From Candidatus Melainabacteria bacterium 17Bon1m (lineage in GTDB: Bacteria > Cyanobacteriota > Vampirovibrionia > Obscuribacterales > Obscuribacteraceae): DNA of 64,000 nt. A model generated the notes under the pieces. That model was not told the origin of the DNA and searched no databases. It saw only the letters and a program-made list of their open reading frames with translations. The position numbers and the translations under genes were made by a program. Positions 1,704-64,000 of this stretch are shown piece by piece. How positions within the stretch are numbered: the first letter of the stretch is position 1; each line of letters opens with the position of its first letter. The DNA is taken from positions 224,001-288,000 of the forward strand of contig JAVLKG010000004.1 of the NCBI GenBank assembly GCA_032128875.1. The letters are read 5' to 3'.

Positions 1704-2491
1704 GCATCGCCAGAATCAAAGGACTTCTCCTTCGCTATTACTATTGTTATTCCAGAAGCACATTTAGAATTCTGGACATTGTATTTTGGCCCGTGATGGA
1801 TCTGCTTGTCTGGGGCTTCCTGACGATGTACATGCTCAAGGTGAATGGCTCGGTGCCGGGCGTTTTTACGTTCCTTATCGGTTCGGTGATCATGTGGAAT
1901 GTACTCTATCGCGCGCAACAAGCTGTTAGCGTGTCTTTCCTTGAAGATGTTTGGTCACGCAACTTTATCAATATCTTTGTTGCACCGGTCAGAACATTCG
2001 AGTTTGTCGCCGCAACTTGCATATCTGGGCTTTTGCAGTCTGTCTGCGTTTCGCTGATCATGATCCCGCTGGCATACTGGTTTTATCAATACAATTTCGG
2101 CATGCTCGGATATTGCATGATTCCATTTTTTATCAATCTGCTATTGATGGGCTGGACCATCGGGTTAGTAACAACGGCTGTGATCATTCGATGGGGACAT
2201 CAGGCAGAAGCGCTTGCTTGGGCAATTCCCTTTCTCATCCAGCCGATTTGTTGCGTTTTTTACCCAGTTGATGTGCTTCCGGCATGGCTGCGTGCGATTT
2301 CACTGTGTGTGCCTGCCACATACGTGTTTGAAGGAATGCGAACAGTTCTCAAAGGCGGCAGCTTTGCCGCCAAAGACCTGGCGATGAGTGTTGTCCTTAA
2401 TATCGTCTATGCCTTGCTCGCCGCGTTTCTCTTTGAATATTTATTCAATGAAGCAAGGAAGAACGGCAAGCTCACCAAGATGAATACTTAG
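1700..2491 (+). CDS. ABC-2 type transporter permease
   Basis: About 6 hydrophobic segments, VFYPV..LP motif, ATGA overlap with the ATPase gene. Confidence 0.92.
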   Translation: MSIARIKGLLLRYYYCYSRSTFRILDIVFWPVMDLLVWGFLTMYMLKVNGSVPGVFTFLIGSVIMWNVLYRAQQAVSVSFLEDVWSRNFINIFVAPVRTFEFVAATCISGLLQSVCVSLIMIPLAYWFYQYNFGMLGYCMIPFFINLLLMGWTIGLVTTAVIIRWGHQAEALAWAIPFLIQPICCVFYPVDVLPAWLRAISLCVPATYVFEGMRTVLKGGSFAAKDLAMSVVLNIVYALLAAFLFEYLFNEARKNGKLTKMNT

Positions 2492-2496
2492 CAAAC

Positions 2497-3792
2497 CTAC
2501 TTCTTGAGTATGTCGTTGAGCTCTTTGGTGAAGCTCTCCTTCAAATCAGGTGAAAAGCCGATGTGTACTTCCGCTACGTTGCCATCTTTTCCGACGATAA
2601 CTGTTTGCGGAATGCCGCGCACTTGATACATCTCAGCGACCTTTCCTTCGCTGTCGAGTCCGACGGAAACCTTCAAATTCTTCTTTTCGAGGAATTCTTT
2701 GATTTGAGCTGGTGTCTCTTGAATGTTGACTGCGAGGAAAACAACATCTTTGTCCTTGAGTGAGCTGGTCACTTCAGTAATGATCGGCAATGCCATTGTG
2801 CATGGACCGCACCATGTCGCCCAGAAATCTAGTACCACCACCTTGCCTTTCTGTGCAGCAAGATTGAACTTAGCGCCGTCTACTGTTTCTAGGTCAAAGG
2901 AAGGAGCCGGTTTGTTGACCAGTGGGTGGACAGCCGGCTGCGCCGATTTCTCTTCCAAGAAGCTTTTCACTTCCTGTGCGCCTTCTGGTTTTGCAAACGT
3001 CAGAAGCTGCGCAGTTGGTTCTACATTTGCTTGTGAATCGGTGTAGCTGCAAGTGAGAACGGCAGTTACGCCCTCAGGAGCGCCAGGCTTGTTAGCCAAA
3101 ATTTTGGACATGTCGGCAGTGACTTTTTGAATCCAAGGCTCTTTGCCCTGGCGAACCCACATGTCCCAGGTGAAATCTTTTTGCGTAAAACGCATGTGGT
3201 CGCAATCGTTGTCGCCGACCTTCTCTACGCCGATATGTTCGACCTTGAGCACATCAGCCATGATCTGTTTGTAGGGATCGGGAGTACACATAGACTCGAT
3301 CAAAGACATGCTGCTGAAGCCGCCTCCCACGATTTGATAATCAATCGTGTCGAATATTTGGCTGAGATTCTCCGGCGCCGGCATGCTCATGTATTTGTTG
3401 AGCACGGGGGTGTAGAGATAAGCGGTTTTGCCGTCGCAGATCATTTGACCGCCCATTTTGCCGCTTTCAAGTTTGAGGTAAAACTTGTTGGGGCGGCCGA
3501 AGGACACCTTGAATACCGAAGTCATCGCGGTTTGCTTATCTGCTGCGGATATTTTCATCTCTGTTGACATGGTTTGGGTGAAACCCTTCATGTCTTTGTA
3601 AAACGTGCCAACGCCTTTCATTATCTGGCTCGACTTTGCATCTATCTGTGTCGCTGGAGCTGCCGAAGGTGCAGAATCCTTGGCTGGAGCCGCAGCATAA
3701 GCTGGGCTTGTCAGGACGCCTGCTGGCGCTGAGGCGGCTAGAAGGCAGACCAGAGCACCGTTAAGGAGATTTTTGGATTTGGCAGTATTCAT
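2497..3792 (-). CDS. Exported DUF2092/LolA-like domain fused to a TlpA-type thioredoxin (redoxin)
   Basis: Signal peptide; C-terminal LDFWATWCGPC and GIPQT motifs; N-terminal beta-rich LolA-like region. Confidence 0.85.
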   Translation of the reverse strand: MNTAKSKNLLNGALVCLLAASAPAGVLTSPAYAAAPAKDSAPSAAPATQIDAKSSQIMKGVGTFYKDMKGFTQTMSTEMKISAADKQTAMTSVFKVSFGRPNKFYLKLESGKMGGQMICDGKTAYLYTPVLNKYMSMPAPENLSQIFDTIDYQIVGGGFSSMSLIESMCTPDPYKQIMADVLKVEHIGVEKVGDNDCDHMRFTQKDFTWDMWVRQGKEPWIQKVTADMSKILANKPGAPEGVTAVLTCSYTDSQANVEPTAQLLTFAKPEGAQEVKSFLEEKSAQPAVHPLVNKPAPSFDLETVDGAKFNLAAQKGKVVVLDFWATWCGPCTMALPIITEVTSSLKDKDVVFLAVNIQETPAQIKEFLEKKNLKVSVGLDSEGKVAEMYQVRGIPQTVIVGKDGNVAEVHIGFSPDLKESFTKELNDILKK

Positions 3793-3871
3793 TTAAAAGA
3801 CCGGGTCAGGGAAGGCAAAGGCCACATAGAATGGCAATTGTAATAGATCCTTCGCGCCTCGTCCTGTTTTG

Positions 3872-6800
3872 CTATTTACCGCGTGACTCTTTATCAGTAC
3901 TGAGTTTTTGTATTGCTTCCGTCTCTAGCTTCTGGTCTGACTTCTCTACTGGAGCGGCTTTCTGGGTTTCTTTCTTGAGCGGATCTAACGCCTCGATTTC
4001 ACCTCTCATGCGAGCGAAATTGGTGCGTTTCTTGTCCTCTTCGGTAATCCAATAAATGATGCGCTTCGCCACGTCATTAGGGTTCTTTTCCAGCGAGCTA
4101 CGCGCCCATGAATATGCGGCAGTCAAATCGCCAAACTTCGTTGCTTCAATAGCGACTCTTGCCATGATTGCTGCGATCTTGTCCTTGGGCAAGTTTCCCC
4201 AGTCCGTATAGCCGGACGGTGTCCCCATGTTTTCCGACAACATGACGCCATTTGAATGTGCAAATGTCATCGATTCATAAGTGCGTCCGATTCTATATTC
4301 CAGAATGTTCAAATCATCGGTATTTGGCTTCGCTTCCTTTGCACAGTAGGTGATGCCGCTGGGTGTCATGGCCATGCGTGAAAGTACCGCTTCCGGTGAG
4401 GTTATCTGTGCTTTGTCGAGCGCGCGAACTATGTAGGGGTTTTCGAATACTTCTTGCAACGCCTTATAGTCTGCGCGAATTGGAGTTTGACTGGCCAAAA
4501 CAACAAGATTGGTCGAATCGGAACATAAGGCCAAGCAGTAGTCAAAATTTCGATCGAGCGCAGCCAGGACAGACTTCACCGAATCCGGTGAAACTTCTGC
4601 TAATTGAAGCCAGAGGCTGAGCACCCCATCTGGTGTCAGTCTGTCTTTGACAGTTTTGAAGTACTCCTGTGTGAAAAGGTTGCAGACACCGACTTGCCAT
4701 GGATTTGACGGTTCGGATACGATGATGTCGTATTTCTGAGTGGTCGCAAGCAAGAAGTTGCGGCCATCGTTGATTTCCACTTTTACGCGGGGATTTTTTT
4801 CCGGCTCATTTGTATATTTATTGAAGACTTTTGCCGCCTCAATTACCGCAGGTTCTAACTCAACGGCGGTCACGCTGGTGATTGGGAAGTTCAAAAGCTC
4901 GCTAATAGTAACGCCCGAGCCCCAGCCAATTACACAAGCTCTGCGCGCATTCGGGCGGAATAGCATAGGATAGCTAGCAAGCAAGACTTGTTGCGACATA
5001 TCTGCTCCGTCGCTGGCATCCACACAACCATTGGTCAAAAGAGAGTAATTACCAATCTTGTCACCGTCTGCAAACCTGAGAACTGCAACGTTAGAACAAG
5101 GACCATCTTTGTAGAAGACGAGTTTTGTCCGATCTATGGAAGATCTCCAAGGACTGTCTTTTTTGAAAACGTCATAGCCGTCTCTCATCGCTCTGCGCGC
5201 GGATTGTGCAACGAGGAGCTGTTTTCTATCCTCAGCCGAATTTGGATTGGCTATGAAACCAATAAAGACCAATGCGCCGAAGATAACATAGGTCATCTTA
5301 TGAGAAAGTTTTGCATCGCTCTGGGCGAAAACCATGATGGTCCCCACAACCATGTTTACGCCGGTGGCGATTAGCAGCGTCTTTTCTACCCCAAATTGTG
5401 GTATCAGAACAAAACCCGCGACAACCGAGCCAATGATCGCGCCCATAGTGTTGGCACTGTATACGGTGCCTACCGAGCTGGCAATGTGCTTAATATCGGA
5501 TGTGGTGCATTTGATTACGATTGGAAACAGCGCACCGAGAAAGAGCGTGAGAGGCAGCAAAATTGCCTCTGCCAGGAGAAAACGAATCCACACTGAAAAT
5601 GCGGCATTGGGGAAAAGCGCATTGAGTTGCAGGTTCCACATTGGCAATTGTCTACATAAAAAAATAGATACGATGCAGCCAATGCCTACATATATTTGAA
5701 TCGCACCGAAAGCCAGAAATGGTTGCTTGAATTTGTCGACAACTTTCGCGCAGAAAATACTGCCCAAGAAGATTCCTGAAAGGAAGGTCGAGAGCATGAC
5801 TGTGAATGCATATGTGCTGCCACCAATAACCAGTGACAGCGTGCGTGTCCAGCAGACTTCGTAGATCATGGCGGCGGCGCCGGAGATGGCTATTGCAGCC
5901 AGGGCTAAATACACCTGACTTGGCACCTTGGCAGCAACTGCAACGGGTGGAGTTTCTACTTTCTGTTCACTTTGCTCGGCAACGCTAGCTGCTACTGTCT
6001 GCGTTTTTTCTGTTGCTTCATCTCGAATCGTTTCGGGCTGCAATTCTGCCGCAGAGGATGCAGTAGAAGCTGCCGCTGCTATCTTGTGTTTCCCTTTCTT
6101 CTTTTTCTTCTTTGATTTTGATGTTTCGGCACTAGAAGCTTCTGAGTCAGTTTTTCGTTCTTCAAAAGCTTCGGAGCTCCGGGAATTGTCAGCGGCTTTG
6201 GCTTGCTCCTTTTTTGCCTTCTCTTTTGCATTTTCGAGTGCTGTTTTTTGCAGTTTGTTTCTCTCTCGGCGCTCGATGTTCAATGAGACAAATAAAACTA
6301 TGAGGCATAAAACAAAGTTGACGCCTGCGGCAATTAGTGTCGTGTTGGATAGACCAATTCCGGGAAGAAGTATCAGACCTGATTGGGCTGCACCACATAC
6401 GGCGCCTAAAGTATTTACGGCATAGACTGTGCCCACTCTGTCACCAACTGTCGCTAGACTGTCGGTTACGAACTTGGATAGCAGCGGCAAAGTGGCGCCC
6501 ATCAAGGTCGTTGGCAGGAGTAGGATAACCGCTGCCAGAGCCAATCTTAACAAGCTGAAGGAAAAGAAGTCGAAATGGGTTAATTCCCAGATGACTCTAT
6601 AACTTGATATTGATATGTCTAGAAGAAATGGAACGGCAAGTGCCCAGGCACCGATGATTCCTTCTAATATGCCGTACCAGAGAAACGGGCGCTCAACCTT
6701 GTCGGCGACACGTCCGGCAAAATAGCTGCCCAGCGCCAGCCCGCCCATGAAAACAGCAAGCACCGTCGACGTTGCCAGTGTTGTAGAGCCGAAAATGAGC

Positions 6801-60463: not shown

Positions 60464-61642
60464 GTGACCAGCTCAAAGAGAGTCGAAACAAAGTTGATTC
60501 ACGCTGGAGAGTTGCGCCCACGCGTTGCTGGTGCAGTCAACTTGCCAATCTTCCAGTCCGCCACTTATGAGTATGGTGGTGAAGATAACTATCACGATAT
60601 TCGCTACATTCGACTCAACAACACCCCTAATCACATCGTTCTGGGAGAAAAACTTGCAGCAATCGAAGGTGCGGAAGCTGCGATGGTAGCCGCGAGCGGA
60701 ATGGCTGCAATCTCGACTGCGCTGCTCAGTATTCTCAGAGAAGGCGATCATATTTTGCTTCAAGATTGCCTCTATGGTGGCACTCATGATTTCGTCACCA
60801 AAGATCTCCCTGATTTAGGAATTAAATACGATTTCATCGACGCAAGTGATCCCGCATCATGGGAAAAGAAAATTCGAAAAGAGACAAAAGCTATCTATGT
60901 CGAGACGATTGCCAATCCGCTTATGGATGTGCCAGAACTCGCTGCAATAGTCGAGTTTGCACGCAATCACAAGATAATTTCAATTGTCGACAATACATTC
61001 GCCAGCCCGATCAACTTTCGACCAGCAGAAATGGGTTTTGATCTTTCAGTGCATAGTTGCACCAAATATTTGAATGGACACTCTGATATTGTCGGCGGTG
61101 CCTGTATCGGTAAAGCAACATTGGTGAAAAACATCACCAGAAAACTAAATCATCTTGGTGGCACCATGGACCCTCATGCTGCGTTTCTCCTGCATAGAGG
61201 TATGAAAACGCTCGCACTTAGAGTTCGACATCAAAATGAAAGTGCATTGAAAATCGCACGGTATTTGGAGAAACATTCTGCAATTGGCAAAGTAAATTAT
61301 CCAGGTTTGGAAAGTCATCCGGCGCATGCGCGTGCTGCGAAATGGTTCGATGGTTTTGGTGGCATGCTTAGTTTTGTACTTAAAGAGGAAAATGCAGCGA
61401 TTGCAGATAGATTTCTCAAAGCACTTCACTATCCGATTTCCGCGCCAAGTCTAGGAGGCGTGGAAAGTTTGATTACTCGCCCGGCGACAACCTCGCATCT
61501 TGGACTGAGCAAGGACGATAGAAAGAGCATTGGTATCAGTGATTCTTTGATTCGTTTTTCTACAGGAATAGAAGCAACTGAAGACCTTATTGAAGATTTT
61601 GAACAAGCGCTGAAGAAGGCTTCTGCCAAGGTAACGAGTTAA
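60464..61642 (+). CDS. PLP-dependent Cys/Met metabolism lyase (cystathionine/methionine gamma-lyase family)
   Basis: ASGMAAI, YGGT, DNTFA, HSCTKYLNGHSD and SLGGVES motifs; AGGAG before GTG at 60464. Confidence 0.93.
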   Translation: MTSSKRVETKLIHAGELRPRVAGAVNLPIFQSATYEYGGEDNYHDIRYIRLNNTPNHIVLGEKLAAIEGAEAAMVAASGMAAISTALLSILREGDHILLQDCLYGGTHDFVTKDLPDLGIKYDFIDASDPASWEKKIRKETKAIYVETIANPLMDVPELAAIVEFARNHKIISIVDNTFASPINFRPAEMGFDLSVHSCTKYLNGHSDIVGGACIGKATLVKNITRKLNHLGGTMDPHAAFLLHRGMKTLALRVRHQNESALKIARYLEKHSAIGKVNYPGLESHPAHARAAKWFDGFGGMLSFVLKEENAAIADRFLKALHYPISAPSLGGVESLITRPATTSHLGLSKDDRKSIGISDSLIRFSTGIEATEDLIEDFEQALKKASAKVTS

Positions 61643-61821
61643 CCAGATTTTGGAAACAAAAATCGGCAGACACAAGTTAGGCCGCTAGCGGGAACATTTC
61701 AAAGCGAGAAGATTCAATTACCTAGTGATCTGAATTTGTATCTCAGTTCATACAAGTAATTTTCGTCTTAGAGATCTAGATATAAAGCCGCTCGCTGTGC
61801 AGGCGATGAGGAAATTCCCCG

Positions 61822-61851
61822 TTGACAAAAACGGATGGCGGTGTATAGACT
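61822..61851 (+). promoter_or_regulatory. Sigma-70-like promoter of the tRNA-array transcript
   Basis: TTGACA-18nt-TAGACT; CCGTT/AACGG inverted repeat overlapping the -35 box. Confidence 0.6.
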
Positions 61852-61954
61852 GGAAAGACGGGCGGCAATGTGCCGCCTCATTCGTCAGTACAGATCTCTA
61901 TAAATCTCTATTAGATCTGTGCTTGAAGAGAATAGATAACCAAAGGTGATCGAC

Positions 61955-62086
61955 GTGTTTCGCACACTCCTCCAACAACAAGATTATAGAAAGCAGCCGC
62001 AGGGGCTGCATCTTGTGCTGGAAGCAAATTTAGGAGTAGTGCACGATCATGAATATCTTTATCTTCAACATCGACTTTTTAGCTAA
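61955..62086 (+). CDS. Putative 43-aa leader peptide upstream of the tRNA array
   Basis: AGGTGAT SD then GTG; MFRTLLQQQDYRKQPQGLHLVLEANLGVVHDHEYLYLQHRLFS. Confidence 0.55.
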   Translation: MFRTLLQQQDYRKQPQGLHLVLEANLGVVHDHEYLYLQHRLFS

Positions 62087-62271
62087 GTTTTCAAACGCCA
62101 ATATTCAAGCAATTGCCGCGCACATTGCGGGCGTTGCAGCGTTTTGTGCGTTCGCAGCATGCTTTTTCGCATTTGATGCTCTGTTCTACGCAACAGCGGC
62201 AACATTCGTAGCGTTTTCAGCTGTTGCACTAACTTCGGAGTTTACTTCCGCGAAAGCGGAAGTGAGCACGT

Positions 62272-62347
62272 GGTGCTGTAACTCAGTGGACAGAGTGCTG
62301 CGTTGTCAGCGCAGAAGCCGGGGGTTCAATTCCCCCCAGCATCGCCA
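62272..62347 (+). tRNA. trnD: tRNA-Asp(GUC)
   Basis: Acceptor GGTGCTG/CAGCATC, anticodon arm CTGCG-TTGTCAG-CGCAG, T-loop TTCAATT, G73, encoded CCA. Confidence 0.92.
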
Positions 62348-62348
62348 T

Positions 62349-62424
62349 GGGATAGGTCGTCCAGCGGCTAGGACATTGGTTTGTGAGACCGAAGACACGG
62401 GTTCGATTCCCGTCCAATCCCCCA
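62349..62424 (+). tRNA. trnH: tRNA-His(GUG)
   Basis: G-1:C73, anticodon arm TTGGT-TTGTGAG-ACCGA, T-loop TTCGATT, CCA; one A-A acceptor mismatch. Confidence 0.9.
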
Positions 62425-62427
62425 TAT

Positions 62428-62502
62428 CTGGGCGTAGCTCAGCAGCAGAGCGCTCGTTTTGGAAGCGAGAGGCCGGACGGGCAGCACGTCCCGCCCAGAC
62501 CA
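62428..62502 (+). tRNA. trnP: tRNA-Pro(UGG), non-canonical D and T loops
   Basis: CTGGGCG/CGCCCAG, CTCGT-TTTGGAA-GCGAG, T-arm GGACG-GGCAGCA-CGTCC, A73, CCA. Confidence 0.85.
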
Positions 62503-62508
62503 ACTTAG

Positions 62509-62534
62509 ATCGTGGGGGCGCGTTGCACGCGCCC
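62509..62534. repeat. REP-like palindrome inside the tRNA array
   Basis: 25 of 26 nt identical to 36446-36471. Confidence 0.75.
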
Positions 62535-62564
62535 TCCTAAAAAGAGAACTTTCAGAACCAGTTT

Positions 62565-62650
62565 GGGAGTGTGGGTGAGTAGACAAAGCCACCTGCCTGT
62601 AAAGCAGACGCCGCAAGGCTTCGCTGGTGCAAATCCAGCCGCTCCCACCA
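62565..62650 (+). tRNA. trnY: tRNA-Tyr(GUA), non-canonical T loop
   Basis: GGGAGTG/CGCTCCC, loop CTGTAAA, variable arm GCC-GCAA-GGC, T-loop TGCAAAT, A73, CCA. Confidence 0.88.
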
Positions 62651-62653
62651 TAT

Positions 62654-62730
62654 GCCCGGGTAGTCCAATCGGCAGAGACGCTTGTCTTAGAAACAAGAGG
62701 TTAGTGGTTCAAATCCACTGCCGGGCACCA
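62654..62730 (+). tRNA. trnL: tRNA-Leu(UAG) with short variable loop
   Basis: CTTGT-CTTAGAA-ACAAG, 5-nt variable loop, T-loop TTCAAAT, A73, CCA; G7-G66 mismatch. Confidence 0.85.
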
Positions 62731-62733
62731 TAA

Positions 62734-62804
62734 TCCGAGGTCGTCTAATGGTAGGACACGACGCTTTGAACGTTGGAACGGTGGTTCGAATCCATCTCTC
62801 GGAG
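62734..62804 (+). tRNA. trnQ: tRNA-Gln(UUG), CCA not encoded
   Basis: TCCGAGG/TCTCGGA, CGACG-CTTTGAA-CGTTG, T-loop TTCGAAT, G73. Confidence 0.9.
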
Positions 62805-62837
62805 ATTACTTTCTTGAAGGTGCACTGCAGTCAAAAC

Positions 62838-62858
62838 GGGCGACGCATGGCGTCGCTC
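62838..62858. repeat. REP-like or terminator-like hairpin after the array
   Basis: GGGCGACGC-ATG-GCGTCGCTC; no clear U-tract. Confidence 0.5.
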
Positions 62859-62869
62859 CTCCGTGACAC

Positions 62870-63220
62870 TTATTTTGCGTATGATTCTAAAAAGCCGCAT
62901 GCCTTGCAGCGCTTAGTCACAACAGGTGATGCGGGCTCTTCATTCACTCCGGCGCCGTCCACCTTGGGACTGCCTTGTACCCAGGTTGTTACATGAACGG
63001 ATGATCTCGATCTATCAAGCAAAAAGCCATTTTCGAACTGTCCGCCGCACTTCGGGCAGTTGCTATCAAGGACACGTCTTTGAATTTCCTCATATCTCTG
63101 AATTTCAGTATTTATGTCACCGCTTTTGTTATTCATGTCGTGTATCAGAAGGTAACCACCGAGAATGGTGTTGACGACTAGGATGGAAATAACAAGGACT
63201 TTTGAATTTGGACTCTTCAT
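62870..63220 (-). CDS. Membrane-anchored zinc-ribbon protein (DUF6487-like)
   Basis: TM segment; CPKCGG.FE.GF and RCKACGFLESYA. Confidence 0.75.
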   Translation of the reverse strand: MKSPNSKVLVISILVVNTILGGYLLIHDMNNKSGDINTEIQRYEEIQRRVLDSNCPKCGGQFENGFLLDRSRSSVHVTTWVQGSPKVDGAGVNEEPASPVVTKRCKACGFLESYAK

Positions 63221-63231
63221 TTTTAGCAATC

Positions 63232-63954
63232 TTACCTAATTGTTTTGTCCATTATAGCTTTCAGCTCTACCGGCAAAGCTCTCGATTCATAGGGCTTTCC
63301 GTGACCAGCAAGTAAACGTGTGACATCAAGGTTTTGATACTTTTGAAGACAGCTATCTCTGGTCGCTTTATTCAGAGTGAACCACTCATGTCCCATAACG
63401 GGTTTGCGAAACATGGTGTGTAAATTGTCACCGCAAAAAAGTGCGCGTGTCATAGGGTCGAACAGACTAATGCTGCCAGGCGTATGACCTGGAGTATGGA
63501 TAATCTTTATATCTGCTAGTTCTTGCTGATCTTGAAGTGGTAAACAGTTTTCAACCTTTGGAATAACAAATCCCGTTCTATCACCGATCCACAGAATGCA
63601 TCTGCAGATGAGAGAACCAACTTCAGCGCTAACTGCCTTAGTGCCTTTTAGAAAGCCGATCTCTTCTTCATGTGCGAAGACAGGTATGTTTAGCGCTCTT
63701 GAAATTGCCGCGGCTGCTCCAGCATGGTCTGGATGTCCATGTGTGATGATGATTCTCTTTATTTCTCCGAAATCACGACTGGCAGTTATTATTTCTTCGC
63801 CATGCGATGAACAACCACAGTCAATTAGAGTTAGACCGTCTTCGCCATTCAACAGCCAGCAGTTGGTTTCCATCCCAATGACAGGTGGAAATCGTAATGT
63901 GATTTGCCACAGCTTATCGGGTTGGATGGTGATTATGTTTGGTTTGATCAATTT
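63232..63954 (-). CDS. Metallo-beta-lactamase-fold hydrolase
   Basis: LIDCG, THGHPDH, TPGHTPG, GD and GHG motifs; start uncertain. Confidence 0.92.
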   Translation of the reverse strand, partial: KLIKPNIITIQPDKLWQITLRFPPVIGMETNCWLLNGEDGLTLIDCGCSSHGEEIITASRDFGEIKRIIITHGHPDHAGAAAAISRALNIPVFAHEEEIGFLKGTKAVSAEVGSLICRCILWIGDRTGFVIPKVENCLPLQDQQELADIKIIHTPGHTPGSISLFDPMTRALFCGDNLHTMFRKPVMGHEWFTLNKATRDSCLQKYQNLDVTRLLAGHGKPYESRALPVELKAIMDKTIR

Positions 63955-64000
63955 CCGATCCAAGTACCGGCAGGATTCCGGCGCTCCCACTAAAGAGCCG

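Follow-up and report, generated by a model that had tools for sequence, protein, structure and literature searches.

Close to one end of the stretch of contig JAVLKG010000004.1 analysed here (64,000 nt, hereafter the window, in whose positions all coordinates are given unless a contig is named), Candidatus Melainabacteria bacterium 17Bon1m carries six tRNA genes behind a short open reading frame (ORF) that is rich in the codons these same tRNAs read. The region from 61822 to 62804 comprises a promoter-like site, 5′ hairpins, this 43-codon ORF (ORF1) led by a Shine-Dalgarno (SD) sequence, and then the tRNA genes (Table 1). A second frame, ORF2, begins inside ORF1 and runs into the tRNA genes. 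We refer to the type of this array as C4-type, and to that of a sister array on contig C1 of the same genome as C1-type. In a preliminary description of this DNA, the locus had been proposed to be a tRNA supply operon that senses its own products through a leader peptide, and every element listed there, including the promoter-like site and the two 5′ hairpins, was found in its place.

The promoter-like site is by itself no rarer than expected by chance (1 found versus 1.8 ± 1.2 in shuffled sequences). Its hexamers are kept in nine of the ten loci of the genus, the tenth being cut at a contig start, and they are also present in genera g42 and g4 (labels of our own, as are those of loci and contigs below). 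The energy of the first 5′ hairpin was equalled by 0/200 shuffles, and in the genus 85% of its cells are paired, with one pair changed on both sides. The second 5′ hairpin has a loop of variable length among the members of the genus.

Table 1. Features of the leader and tRNA array in the window, and the sister array on contig C1. Folding energies (dG) are in kcal/mol; z scores compare them with shuffled sequences.
Feature	Position	Strand	Remarks
Promoter-like site	61822..61851	+	TTGACA, 18 nt, TAGACT; 10/12 consensus matches
5′-terminal hairpin, GGGCGGCA..TGCCGCC(T)C	61860..61877	+	dG -14.2, z -3.9
Second 5′ hairpin, inverted repeat ACAGATCT..AGATCTGT	61890..61920	+	Arms retained by most genus members
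SD-like GGTGATC and ORF1 GTG start	61945..61957	+	Also 5′ arm of the long hairpin; pairs with 62044-62050
ORF1, 43-codon leader	61955..62086	+	Cognate-codon clusters LLQQQDY..QPQ.LHL.L and HDH.YLYLQH
Hairpin within ORF1, GCAGCC..GGCTGC	61993..62009	+	Over codons Q-P-x-x-L; 93% paired (helix 5)
ORF2 start region, GGAG, 12 nt, ATG 62049	62033..62051	+	3′ arm of the long hairpin
ORF2, +1 frame	62049..62540	+	74 codons ahead of tRNA-Asp, then through Asp, His and Pro to TAA 62538
Covarying hairpin in ORF2, GCAAT..CCGCG-CACAT-TGCGG..GTTGC	62109..62137	+	4/5 inner pairs changed on both sides
Hairpin CTTCCGC-GAAA-GCGGAAG	62245..62262	+	Ends 9 nt ahead of tRNA-Asp; 3/7 pairs changed on both sides
tRNA-Asp(GUC)	62272..62347	+	64.9 bits; 68% identity to housekeeping copy
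tRNA-His(GUG)	62350..62424	+	55.7 bits; 66% identity to housekeeping copy
tRNA-Pro(UGG)	62428..62503	+	Rfam match 62428-62499, 45.6 bits; not called by ARAGORN
GC-rich palindromic repeat between tRNA-Pro and tRNA-Tyr	62507..62536	.	No terminator here
tRNA-Tyr(GUA)	62565..62650	+	46.2 bits
tRNA-Leu(UAG)	62654..62730	+	55.6 bits
tRNA-Gln(UUG)	62734..62804	+	57.5 bits
C1 array (locus L012/L014)	C1:269233-270810		Ala-like/Cys, Val, Ile, Gly, Arg(ACG), Lys, Thr, Cys, Trp, Phe

An automatic ORF call lets ORF1 begin 9 nt earlier, at a GTG within the SD (46 aa), and an alignment of 21 loci places the conserved GTG or ATG at 61955, 3 nt downstream of the SD-like GGTGATC (61945-61951). The SD and start (61945-61957) are invariant in all ten loci of the genus, the start column reads GTG or ATG in 21/21 loci, and the frame closes with a TAA at 62084-62086, which makes ORF1 a short, conserved, SD-led leader. 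As described before, its residues include nine Leu, six Gln, four His, three Tyr, two Asp and one Pro (25/43), and eight of the nine Leu codons are CUN. Taking the CUN, Gln, His, Tyr, Asp and Pro codons as the array set, 24 of the 42 codons after the start belong to it. This number is reached by only 0.039% of 33,022 ORFs of 33-50 codons in all six frames of the genome (empirical P = 3.9 × 10−4; mean 0.23), and the binomial test proposed in the preliminary description gave P = 1.6 × 10−5 against long-ORF codon usage. The leader is thus enriched in codons that report on what the locus produces. It had also been cautioned that part of the bias could come from the overlapping +1 ORF; as this overlaps only the last 38 nt of ORF1, it cannot account for the bias. 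Pfam holds no family for either ORF1 or ORF2. At the position of the hairpin within ORF1, other genera have hairpins with other arms (CAGGCT/AGCCTG, GCAGGT/ACCTGC and CAGCT/AGCTG), and it is possibly a pause hairpin.

The first of the tRNA genes, tRNA-Asp, starts at 62272, 185 nt beyond the ORF1 stop. Five of the tRNAs were called by ARAGORN (Asp, His, Tyr, Leu(UAG) and Gln) and six by Rfam, so that the set named beforehand was recovered at the distance given for it, with Pro right and its anticodon UGG. The genome assembly (7.55 Mb, 35 contigs) contains 68 tRNA genes, and all six array tRNAs are also present elsewhere as single housekeeping genes. Because these are only 56-68% identical to the array copies, the array can be regarded as a diverged spare set, which bears out the backup role suggested for it. 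It duplicates a complete housekeeping set, as the L-arrays of PMC8421152 do, with six genes in place of the tens of a long array. Since related genera carry 16-25 tRNAs in one array, the window array, as far as its gene content goes, looks like a fragment of a longer one.

A DNA search recovered the leader from 10 of 13 genus members and gave no match in 28 more distant genomes. All ten leader-bearing genomes carry the same array and an intact ORF1 of 41-43 codons, in which indels come in multiples of three. Across eight genera, all 21 aligned C4-type loci have a homologous ORF1 (36-48 codons), with its start, and with the frame and SD on whose conservation the original proposal had been made to depend. 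In the family, DNA of the window-type array occurs in 34/104 genomes (7/37 genera) and that of the C1-type array in 24/104 (9/37 genera). A tRNA-His together with the unusual tRNA-Pro of this array (described below) was found in 23 of 96 other family genomes, and in none of 205 genomes from ten other families of the class.

The composition of the leaders was compared with the content of their arrays, orthologous and paralogous, in 19 leader-array pairs (11 window-type and 8 C1-type) from ten genera, with one or two pairs per genus. These were drawn from 32 window-type and about 25 C1-type loci, leaving out close relatives, same-place duplicates and loci cut at contig ends. Homologous leaders were found in all sampled arrays, and their wording shifts with the tRNA set. 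Over all pairs, 452 leader residues have a tRNA in their own array, compared to 389.9 ± 10.9 when arrays were re-dealt within type (0/20,000 permutations reached 452), and when restricted to a single pair per genus and type (14 pairs) the count was 339 versus 293 ± 9.4 (0/20,000), although both permutation P values overstate the significance because the related genomes are not independent. Leader composition thus follows array content, as the preliminary description had expected of a leader that senses its array.

Eighteen of the 20 amino acids are commoner in leaders whose array has their tRNA, the exceptions being Phe and Val. Trp occurs in leaders only where the array has a tRNA-Trp. The array that begins with tRNA-Asn has seven Asn in its leader, arrays led by tRNA-Glu have six to eight Glu, and the leader of an array without tRNA-Asp has no Asp but does have Cys, alongside a tRNA-Cys. 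Counts of Pro, Tyr, Gln and Leu likewise vary in step with their tRNAs. At the level of single codons, ATA is used by all six leaders with Ile(UAU) in the array versus 2 of the 13 without it, and AGA or AGG by all six C1-type leaders with Arg(UCU) in the array. One genus possesses a single array of 24 tRNAs, and its 43-codon leader uses all 20 amino acids, which is true of 71 out of 11,850 genomic ORFs of 40-46 codons. The direction of tracking is consistent across several separate gains and losses of tRNA genes.

The genome holds two further tRNA arrays, the one on C1 and a phage-like one on contig C3. The C1 array has an SD-led leader of 38 codons, and 26 of 37 codons belong to the set of its own array (P = 4.5 × 10−4) and three of 37 to the set of the window array. 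Of the ORF1 codons, 11/42 fall in the C1 set; the two leaders are thus reciprocal. In 14 of 14 C1-type loci, the leader stop lies 26-29 nt upstream of a conserved hairpin followed by a T-run, and further genera are alike. The last codons of the C1-type leader contain CCCAGG, the same letters as the 3′ arm of the terminator. When the nascent RNA of three C1-type loci was folded, this segment paired with the terminator 5′ arm in two, and another leader segment did so in the third. Judged by its sequence, the C1-type leader is a classic ribosome-mediated attenuator in anatomy. A ribosome at the leader stop would cover the antiterminator strand, and an earlier stall would leave this strand free.

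At the window locus, the ORF2 start region is predicted to pair with the SD, start and codons 4-6 of ORF1 (helices 2-4, 92-98% paired). The long hairpin that contains this pairing (61943-62056) has a folding energy of −38.7 kcal/mol (z = −4.0). Pairing between the ribosome-binding sites of the two ORFs (RBS1 and RBS2) recurs in 16/16 loci of eight genera: 12-17 of the 19 nt around the ORF2 start are paired, compared to 3-5 in shuffled sequences, of which at most 3% reach the natural value. These counts come from per-sequence pairing probabilities, with the ribosome-binding site and first ten codons of ORF1 as the partner window. An RNAalifold consensus was attempted over 21 loci of the eight genera and gave no consensus structure, because the 21-locus alignment is too diverged. 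Across ten sequences of the genus, the structure named here is 89% paired, versus 30-54% when its partners are slid, and 11 of its pairs are changed on both sides, versus 3.4 ± 1.4 in shuffles. Compensatory changes are concentrated in the ORF2 hairpin (62116-62130) and in the hairpin that precedes tRNA-Asp (62245-62262). The energy of the former is unexceptional (z = −1.0 for 62109-62137); at the position of the latter, hairpins of different sequence are found in g42 and g13.

Ahead of tRNA-Asp, ORF2 specifies about 74 hydrophobic residues, with no stop in any of the ten loci of the genus. Since changes in its ORF2-only part fall 23/27/66 on the three codon positions among seven well-aligned genomes of the genus, the mark of a translated frame, ORF2 would seem to be coding in the genus. 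A +1-frame ATG lies 85-106 nt into ORF1 in 13/13 loci of eight genera. From there, ORF2 stays open for 178-754 nt (59-251 codons) past the ORF1 stop in all 13 loci, compared to only 8-122 nt for the +2 frame, and in 12 of the 13 it enters the first tRNA gene, whichever tRNA this is. The sequence of ORF2 is not conserved between genera, and in four genera it is mostly translated tRNA sequence. Beyond the ORF1 stop, array-cognate residues number 6/61 (P = 3 × 10−4), 5/109, 15/122 and 5/61 in four loci with a long spacer, against an expected fraction of 0.26-0.29. Where the array has no tRNA-Leu, ORF2 is Leu-rich.

With moderate confidence, we read the leader as an element that senses in cis how well six particular tRNAs are supplied, placed ahead of spare genes for them; ORF1 would probably sense a shortage of exactly the tRNAs of the array. 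The preliminary description had suggested that stalling on the ORF1 codons turns on backup tRNAs, as in an attenuator. What stands of this is the wording of the leader in codons of the downstream tRNAs, and the way its composition follows the arrays. The simple attenuator picture, on the other hand, fails for the window array, as no terminator lies between its leader and the tRNAs; regulation as such, and the output step, are here what we infer from the features above. In the erm and cat/cmlA systems of translation attenuation, the leader ORF contributes one arm of a hairpin, and a ribosome that stalls on it exposes the ribosome-binding site of the following ORF. By analogy with these, the window leader may work as a relay of this kind in place of a terminator, still within the logic of leader-peptide attenuation. 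An ORF1 rich in array codons and an ORF2 that avoids them are what would be expected if ORF2 must be translated exactly when ORF1 stalls, and it is this combination of a scarce-codon ORF1 and a purged ORF2 that leads us to such a relay.

Under this proposal, a shortage of any one charged array tRNA, for example after tRNA cleavage or damage, would stall a ribosome in the first cluster of ORF1. The stalled ribosome would hold the 5′ arm of the hairpin and free the ORF2 start, and ORF2, not needing the scarce tRNAs, would be translated into the array and lead to a greater output of mature tRNA. With ample tRNA, ORF1 would be read through, the hairpin would close again and ORF2 would be silent. 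ORF2 ribosomes might push RNA polymerase through the array, or removal of the leader might be coupled to non-stop rescue. Only tentatively do we put forward the proposal in its full form: a relay that is both terminator-less and Rho-less, in which a stall in ORF1 unmasks the purged, stop-less ORF2, and translation of tRNA sequence licenses tRNA production. Together with the complementary sister attenuator, the locus would then form a split, self-tuning reserve pool, each half of it triggered by the codons that it serves. The likely use of such a pool would be cover against tRNA-cleaving toxins.

The resemblance to erm and cat attenuation lies in the pairing of the 5′ part of ORF1 with the ORF2 start, seen in all 16 loci. 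The systems differ in that the stall here would stem from a missing tRNA and not from a drug plus a nascent-peptide motif. Moreover, ORF2 is not the regulated protein of those systems, as it begins inside the leader in the +1 frame, runs into the tRNA genes without meeting a stop, and gives no protein conserved between genera. Leader-peptide transcription attenuators are familiar from the amino-acid operons trp, his, leu, thr, ilv and pheA. These also have a short, SD-led 5′ ORF enriched in codons whose decoding reports on the product of the operon, and the multivalent leaders of the ilv type, with several amino acids, come nearest to ORF1. The sister C1-type array matches them in its full anatomy of leader, antiterminator and hairpin with T-run, whereas the window leader has neither a terminator behind it nor an antiterminator to exclude one. 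Unlike in those operons, the regulated genes here are tRNA genes, and the product that would relieve the stall is a tRNA instead of an amino acid. The array leaders are also long (33-48 codons), with their cognate codons in two clusters and not in one tight run.

Spare arrays of tRNA genes are widespread among bacteria, plasmids and phages. The photosynthetic cyanobacteria are the sister group of the Melainabacteria, and in the broad sense the two share a phylum. To our knowledge, the only spare array whose control has been described is that of Anabaena, which is under a protein repressor. According to two reports (PMC8421152, PMC10272220), the trn operon of Anabaena sp. PCC 7120 is a long spare tRNA array whose repressor, TrcR, binds direct repeats over the −10 box and the transcription start site; the preliminary description was right to name it a stress-induced array under a protein repressor. 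As presented there, it shares with the window array its supernumerary position next to a full set of housekeeping genes and its presumed use when translation is in trouble, and differs in being controlled by a protein, TrcR, at the promoter. The words leader, attenuat and terminator do not occur in PMC8421152. The TrcR repeat signatures had no match with up to two mismatches at 61800-61870, and no search for a trcR gene was made; across the window they gave 13 and 19 matches, versus 16.7 and 17.0 expected.

T-box riboswitches bind uncharged tRNA directly and control synthetase or amino-acid genes. They are comparable to the array leaders as cis-acting leaders that read the state of one specific tRNA. 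An Rfam scan of 61000-64000 gave no T-box, only tRNA matches and three sub-threshold ones at chance level. A full-text search of the published literature, at the level of listings, found no account of leader-peptide control of tRNA genes, and so agrees with the earlier statement that no such description was known. What would be new, then, is leader-peptide sensing applied to tRNA genes, here apparently with a stop-less relay ORF instead of a terminator.

Several observations weigh against the tRNA-supply sensor and the relay proposed for it. The third-position excess in the ORF1-only part is weak, with changes of 9/9/14 by codon position in the seven well-aligned genomes. The codons for His, Gln, Tyr, Asp, Pro and Leu(CUN) are neighbours in the codon table, so it is conceivable that a nucleotide bias raised all of them jointly. 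The non-independence of the related genomes in the tracking analysis, mentioned above, belongs here as well. The RBS1:RBS2 helices show little covariation, since both arms are nearly invariant within the genus. The second cognate cluster, HDH.YLYLQH, sits over the ORF2 start, where a stalled ribosome would block ORF2, and part of this cluster may be forced by complementarity to the SD region. A fifth long-spacer locus has 23/100 array-cognate residues in ORF2 and hence no depletion, and in the close pair L051/L052 of genus g34 the changes in ORF2 are 6/3/4, without a coding signal (in only 13 changes). With regard to the output step, a terminator scan found no intrinsic terminator on the plus strand between 62087 and 62271. 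No rho gene was detected in the 93%-complete genome, the best match scoring 34.6 bits against a cut-off of 509. In four genera, the leader stop is only 11-36 nt ahead of the first tRNA.

Other candidates for the output step were looked for at the locus and in its relatives. A looser terminator scan (hairpin dG ≤ −7, then a tail with at least 6 U of 9) found none at the locus and none that was consistently placed in ten relatives. A T-rich flank after the first tRNA-Glu in g13 (6-10 U of 12) was considered as a terminator and is not general. Rho-dependent polarity was rejected for lack of a rho gene above the cut-off. The minimum free energy fold had suggested that the spacer masks tRNA-Asp. 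In 17 loci, the acceptor stem is no more perturbed behind its natural upstream sequence than behind a shuffled one, the fraction of shuffles at or below the natural value being mostly 0.6-1.0. An 11-mer common to the window spacer and a tRNA-Glu flank in one g47 locus is present in one of six g47 loci, and by estimate a chance match is possible. Four runs labelled as RNA-Seq were discarded as expression evidence; we judged them to be DNA-like because the locus lies on 37-50 kb contigs of even depth (~12-23). Transfer-messenger RNA (tmRNA) is present in the genome.

The same sensor could also act through the opposite relay. Translation of ORF2 through the tRNAs would then be the OFF state, in which the precursor is kept unfolded or is exposed to non-stop decay, and a stall in the second cluster would block ORF2 and turn the array on. 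It is favoured by the position of the densest and best conserved cognate cluster, which surrounds the ORF2 ATG in all 11 representative leaders, and by the presence of tmRNA, as the stop-less ORF2 would become a non-stop message after RNase P cleavage. However, it gives no reason for the depletion of array-cognate residues in ORF2 (four of five loci), a stall in the first cluster would act in the wrong direction, and translating through a tRNA should merely delay its folding. We consider this relay unlikely, and give still less credence to a general sensor of translation stress, in which any slowing of ribosomes on ORF1, by antibiotics or ribosome damage, turns the array on, with only a secondary part for the codon match. 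Hairpin relays like those of erm/cat do react to stalled ribosomes of any cause, and the spare tRNA array of Anabaena is, according to PMC8421152 and PMC10272220, induced by translation inhibitors. Such a sensor leaves unexplained both the gain of tRNA genes together with their codons in the leaders (Asn, Glu, Cys, Trp, ATA and AGA) and the complementary leaders on two arrays of one genome.

Two further explanations do without a sensor. ORF1 and ORF2 could encode small proteins that have a role of their own, for instance as a membrane peptide, and are merely co-transcribed with the tRNAs, their composition being adapted to the co-expressed tRNAs or aided by them. The hydrophobic nature of ORF2 and its amino-acid-level constraint within the genus would fit this, but not its lack of a stop, its lack of conservation between genera or its make-up, in four of these, mostly of translated tRNA sequence. 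ORF1 is under little amino-acid constraint, neither ORF belongs to a Pfam family, and co-adaptation predicts an ORF2 rich in array codons whereas ORF2 is poor in them, all of which makes small proteins quite improbable. The leader could also be a purely structural RNA, an element for processing or stability of the tRNA precursor whose ORFs are by-products of structure and base composition. Several hairpins do covary, the long hairpin is far more stable than shuffles, and the enriched codons adjoin in the codon table. Against these stand the indels in threes, the start, SD and frame kept in 21/21 loci, the third-position excess in ORF2, the +1 frame open for 59-251 codons in 13/13 loci where the +2 frame closes within 8-122 nt, and a leader composition that follows the tRNA set. 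To this structural explanation we assign the lowest probability, slightly below that of small proteins.

If the leader is indeed a tRNA-supply sensor, then by reading the codons of its own array it would let each array gauge, directly and specifically, the tRNAs that the array can replace. Compared with a general stress signal, such specific sensing is a better fit to a role in surviving tRNA loss, be it through anticodon nucleases, tRNA damage or phage attack. The family can be seen as a natural experiment, in which arrays split, gained and lost tRNAs and leaders followed. The window variant adds a further element, a conserved reading frame that enters tRNA genes.

Some further observations concern the tRNAs and repeats of the window array. 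In tRNA-Pro(UGG), the T-loop is non-canonical (GGCAGCA) and the D-loop lacks the GG pair. This unusual T-loop is kept in five genera (loci L044, L045, L049, L051, L055, L058 and L060), and the T-stem shows compensatory changes, GGACG/CGTCC versus GAGGG/CCTTC. Because the oddity is kept in this way, the sequences suggest that this is probably a working, non-canonical tRNA. In the anticodon loop, the array tRNAs for His, Leu(UAG) and Gln have A37 where the housekeeping copies have G37, and positions 32 and 38 also differ between array and housekeeping copies in the Asp, His and Gln tRNAs. These differences would matter if the spare set serves escape from anticodon nucleases. GC-rich palindromes are located at 62507-62536 and 62831-62860, with copies on other contigs of the same assemblies and a related copy in the C1 array, there followed by a T-run; they look like dispersed repeats of the REP (repetitive extragenic palindromic) type. 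In genus g13, locus L057 (1290-1390) has tandem 15-nt repeats between tRNA-Glu and tRNA-Asp. In the ORF2 frame these read as repeated Ala-Lys-Ala-Pro-Phe, and the unit, being a multiple of three, fits a translated frame.

The remaining observations concern the other two arrays. The first tRNA of the C1 array resembles a tRNA-Ala(UGC) with an altered loop. Between tRNA-Arg and tRNA-Lys, the C1 array contains an internal hairpin and T-run, which may split it into two transcription units. ARAGORN called 'Cys(aca)' for several array tRNAs (loci L016, L027 and L107-L110); by their loops, those of L016 and L027 are tRNA-Val(UAC), the former with C instead of U33. The third array of the genome (C3:1007950-1010320; locus L013, ~2450-4830) is the phage-like one. 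A 69-aa ORF located among its tRNAs has an Acb2/Tad1 hairpin domain (E-value of 1 × 10−14), a phage sponge family for defence signals, and an RNA ligase (PF09414, E-value of 1.4 × 10−16) adjoins the array. From these domain matches, the context of the C3 array would link tRNA arrays here to counter-defence and tRNA repair.

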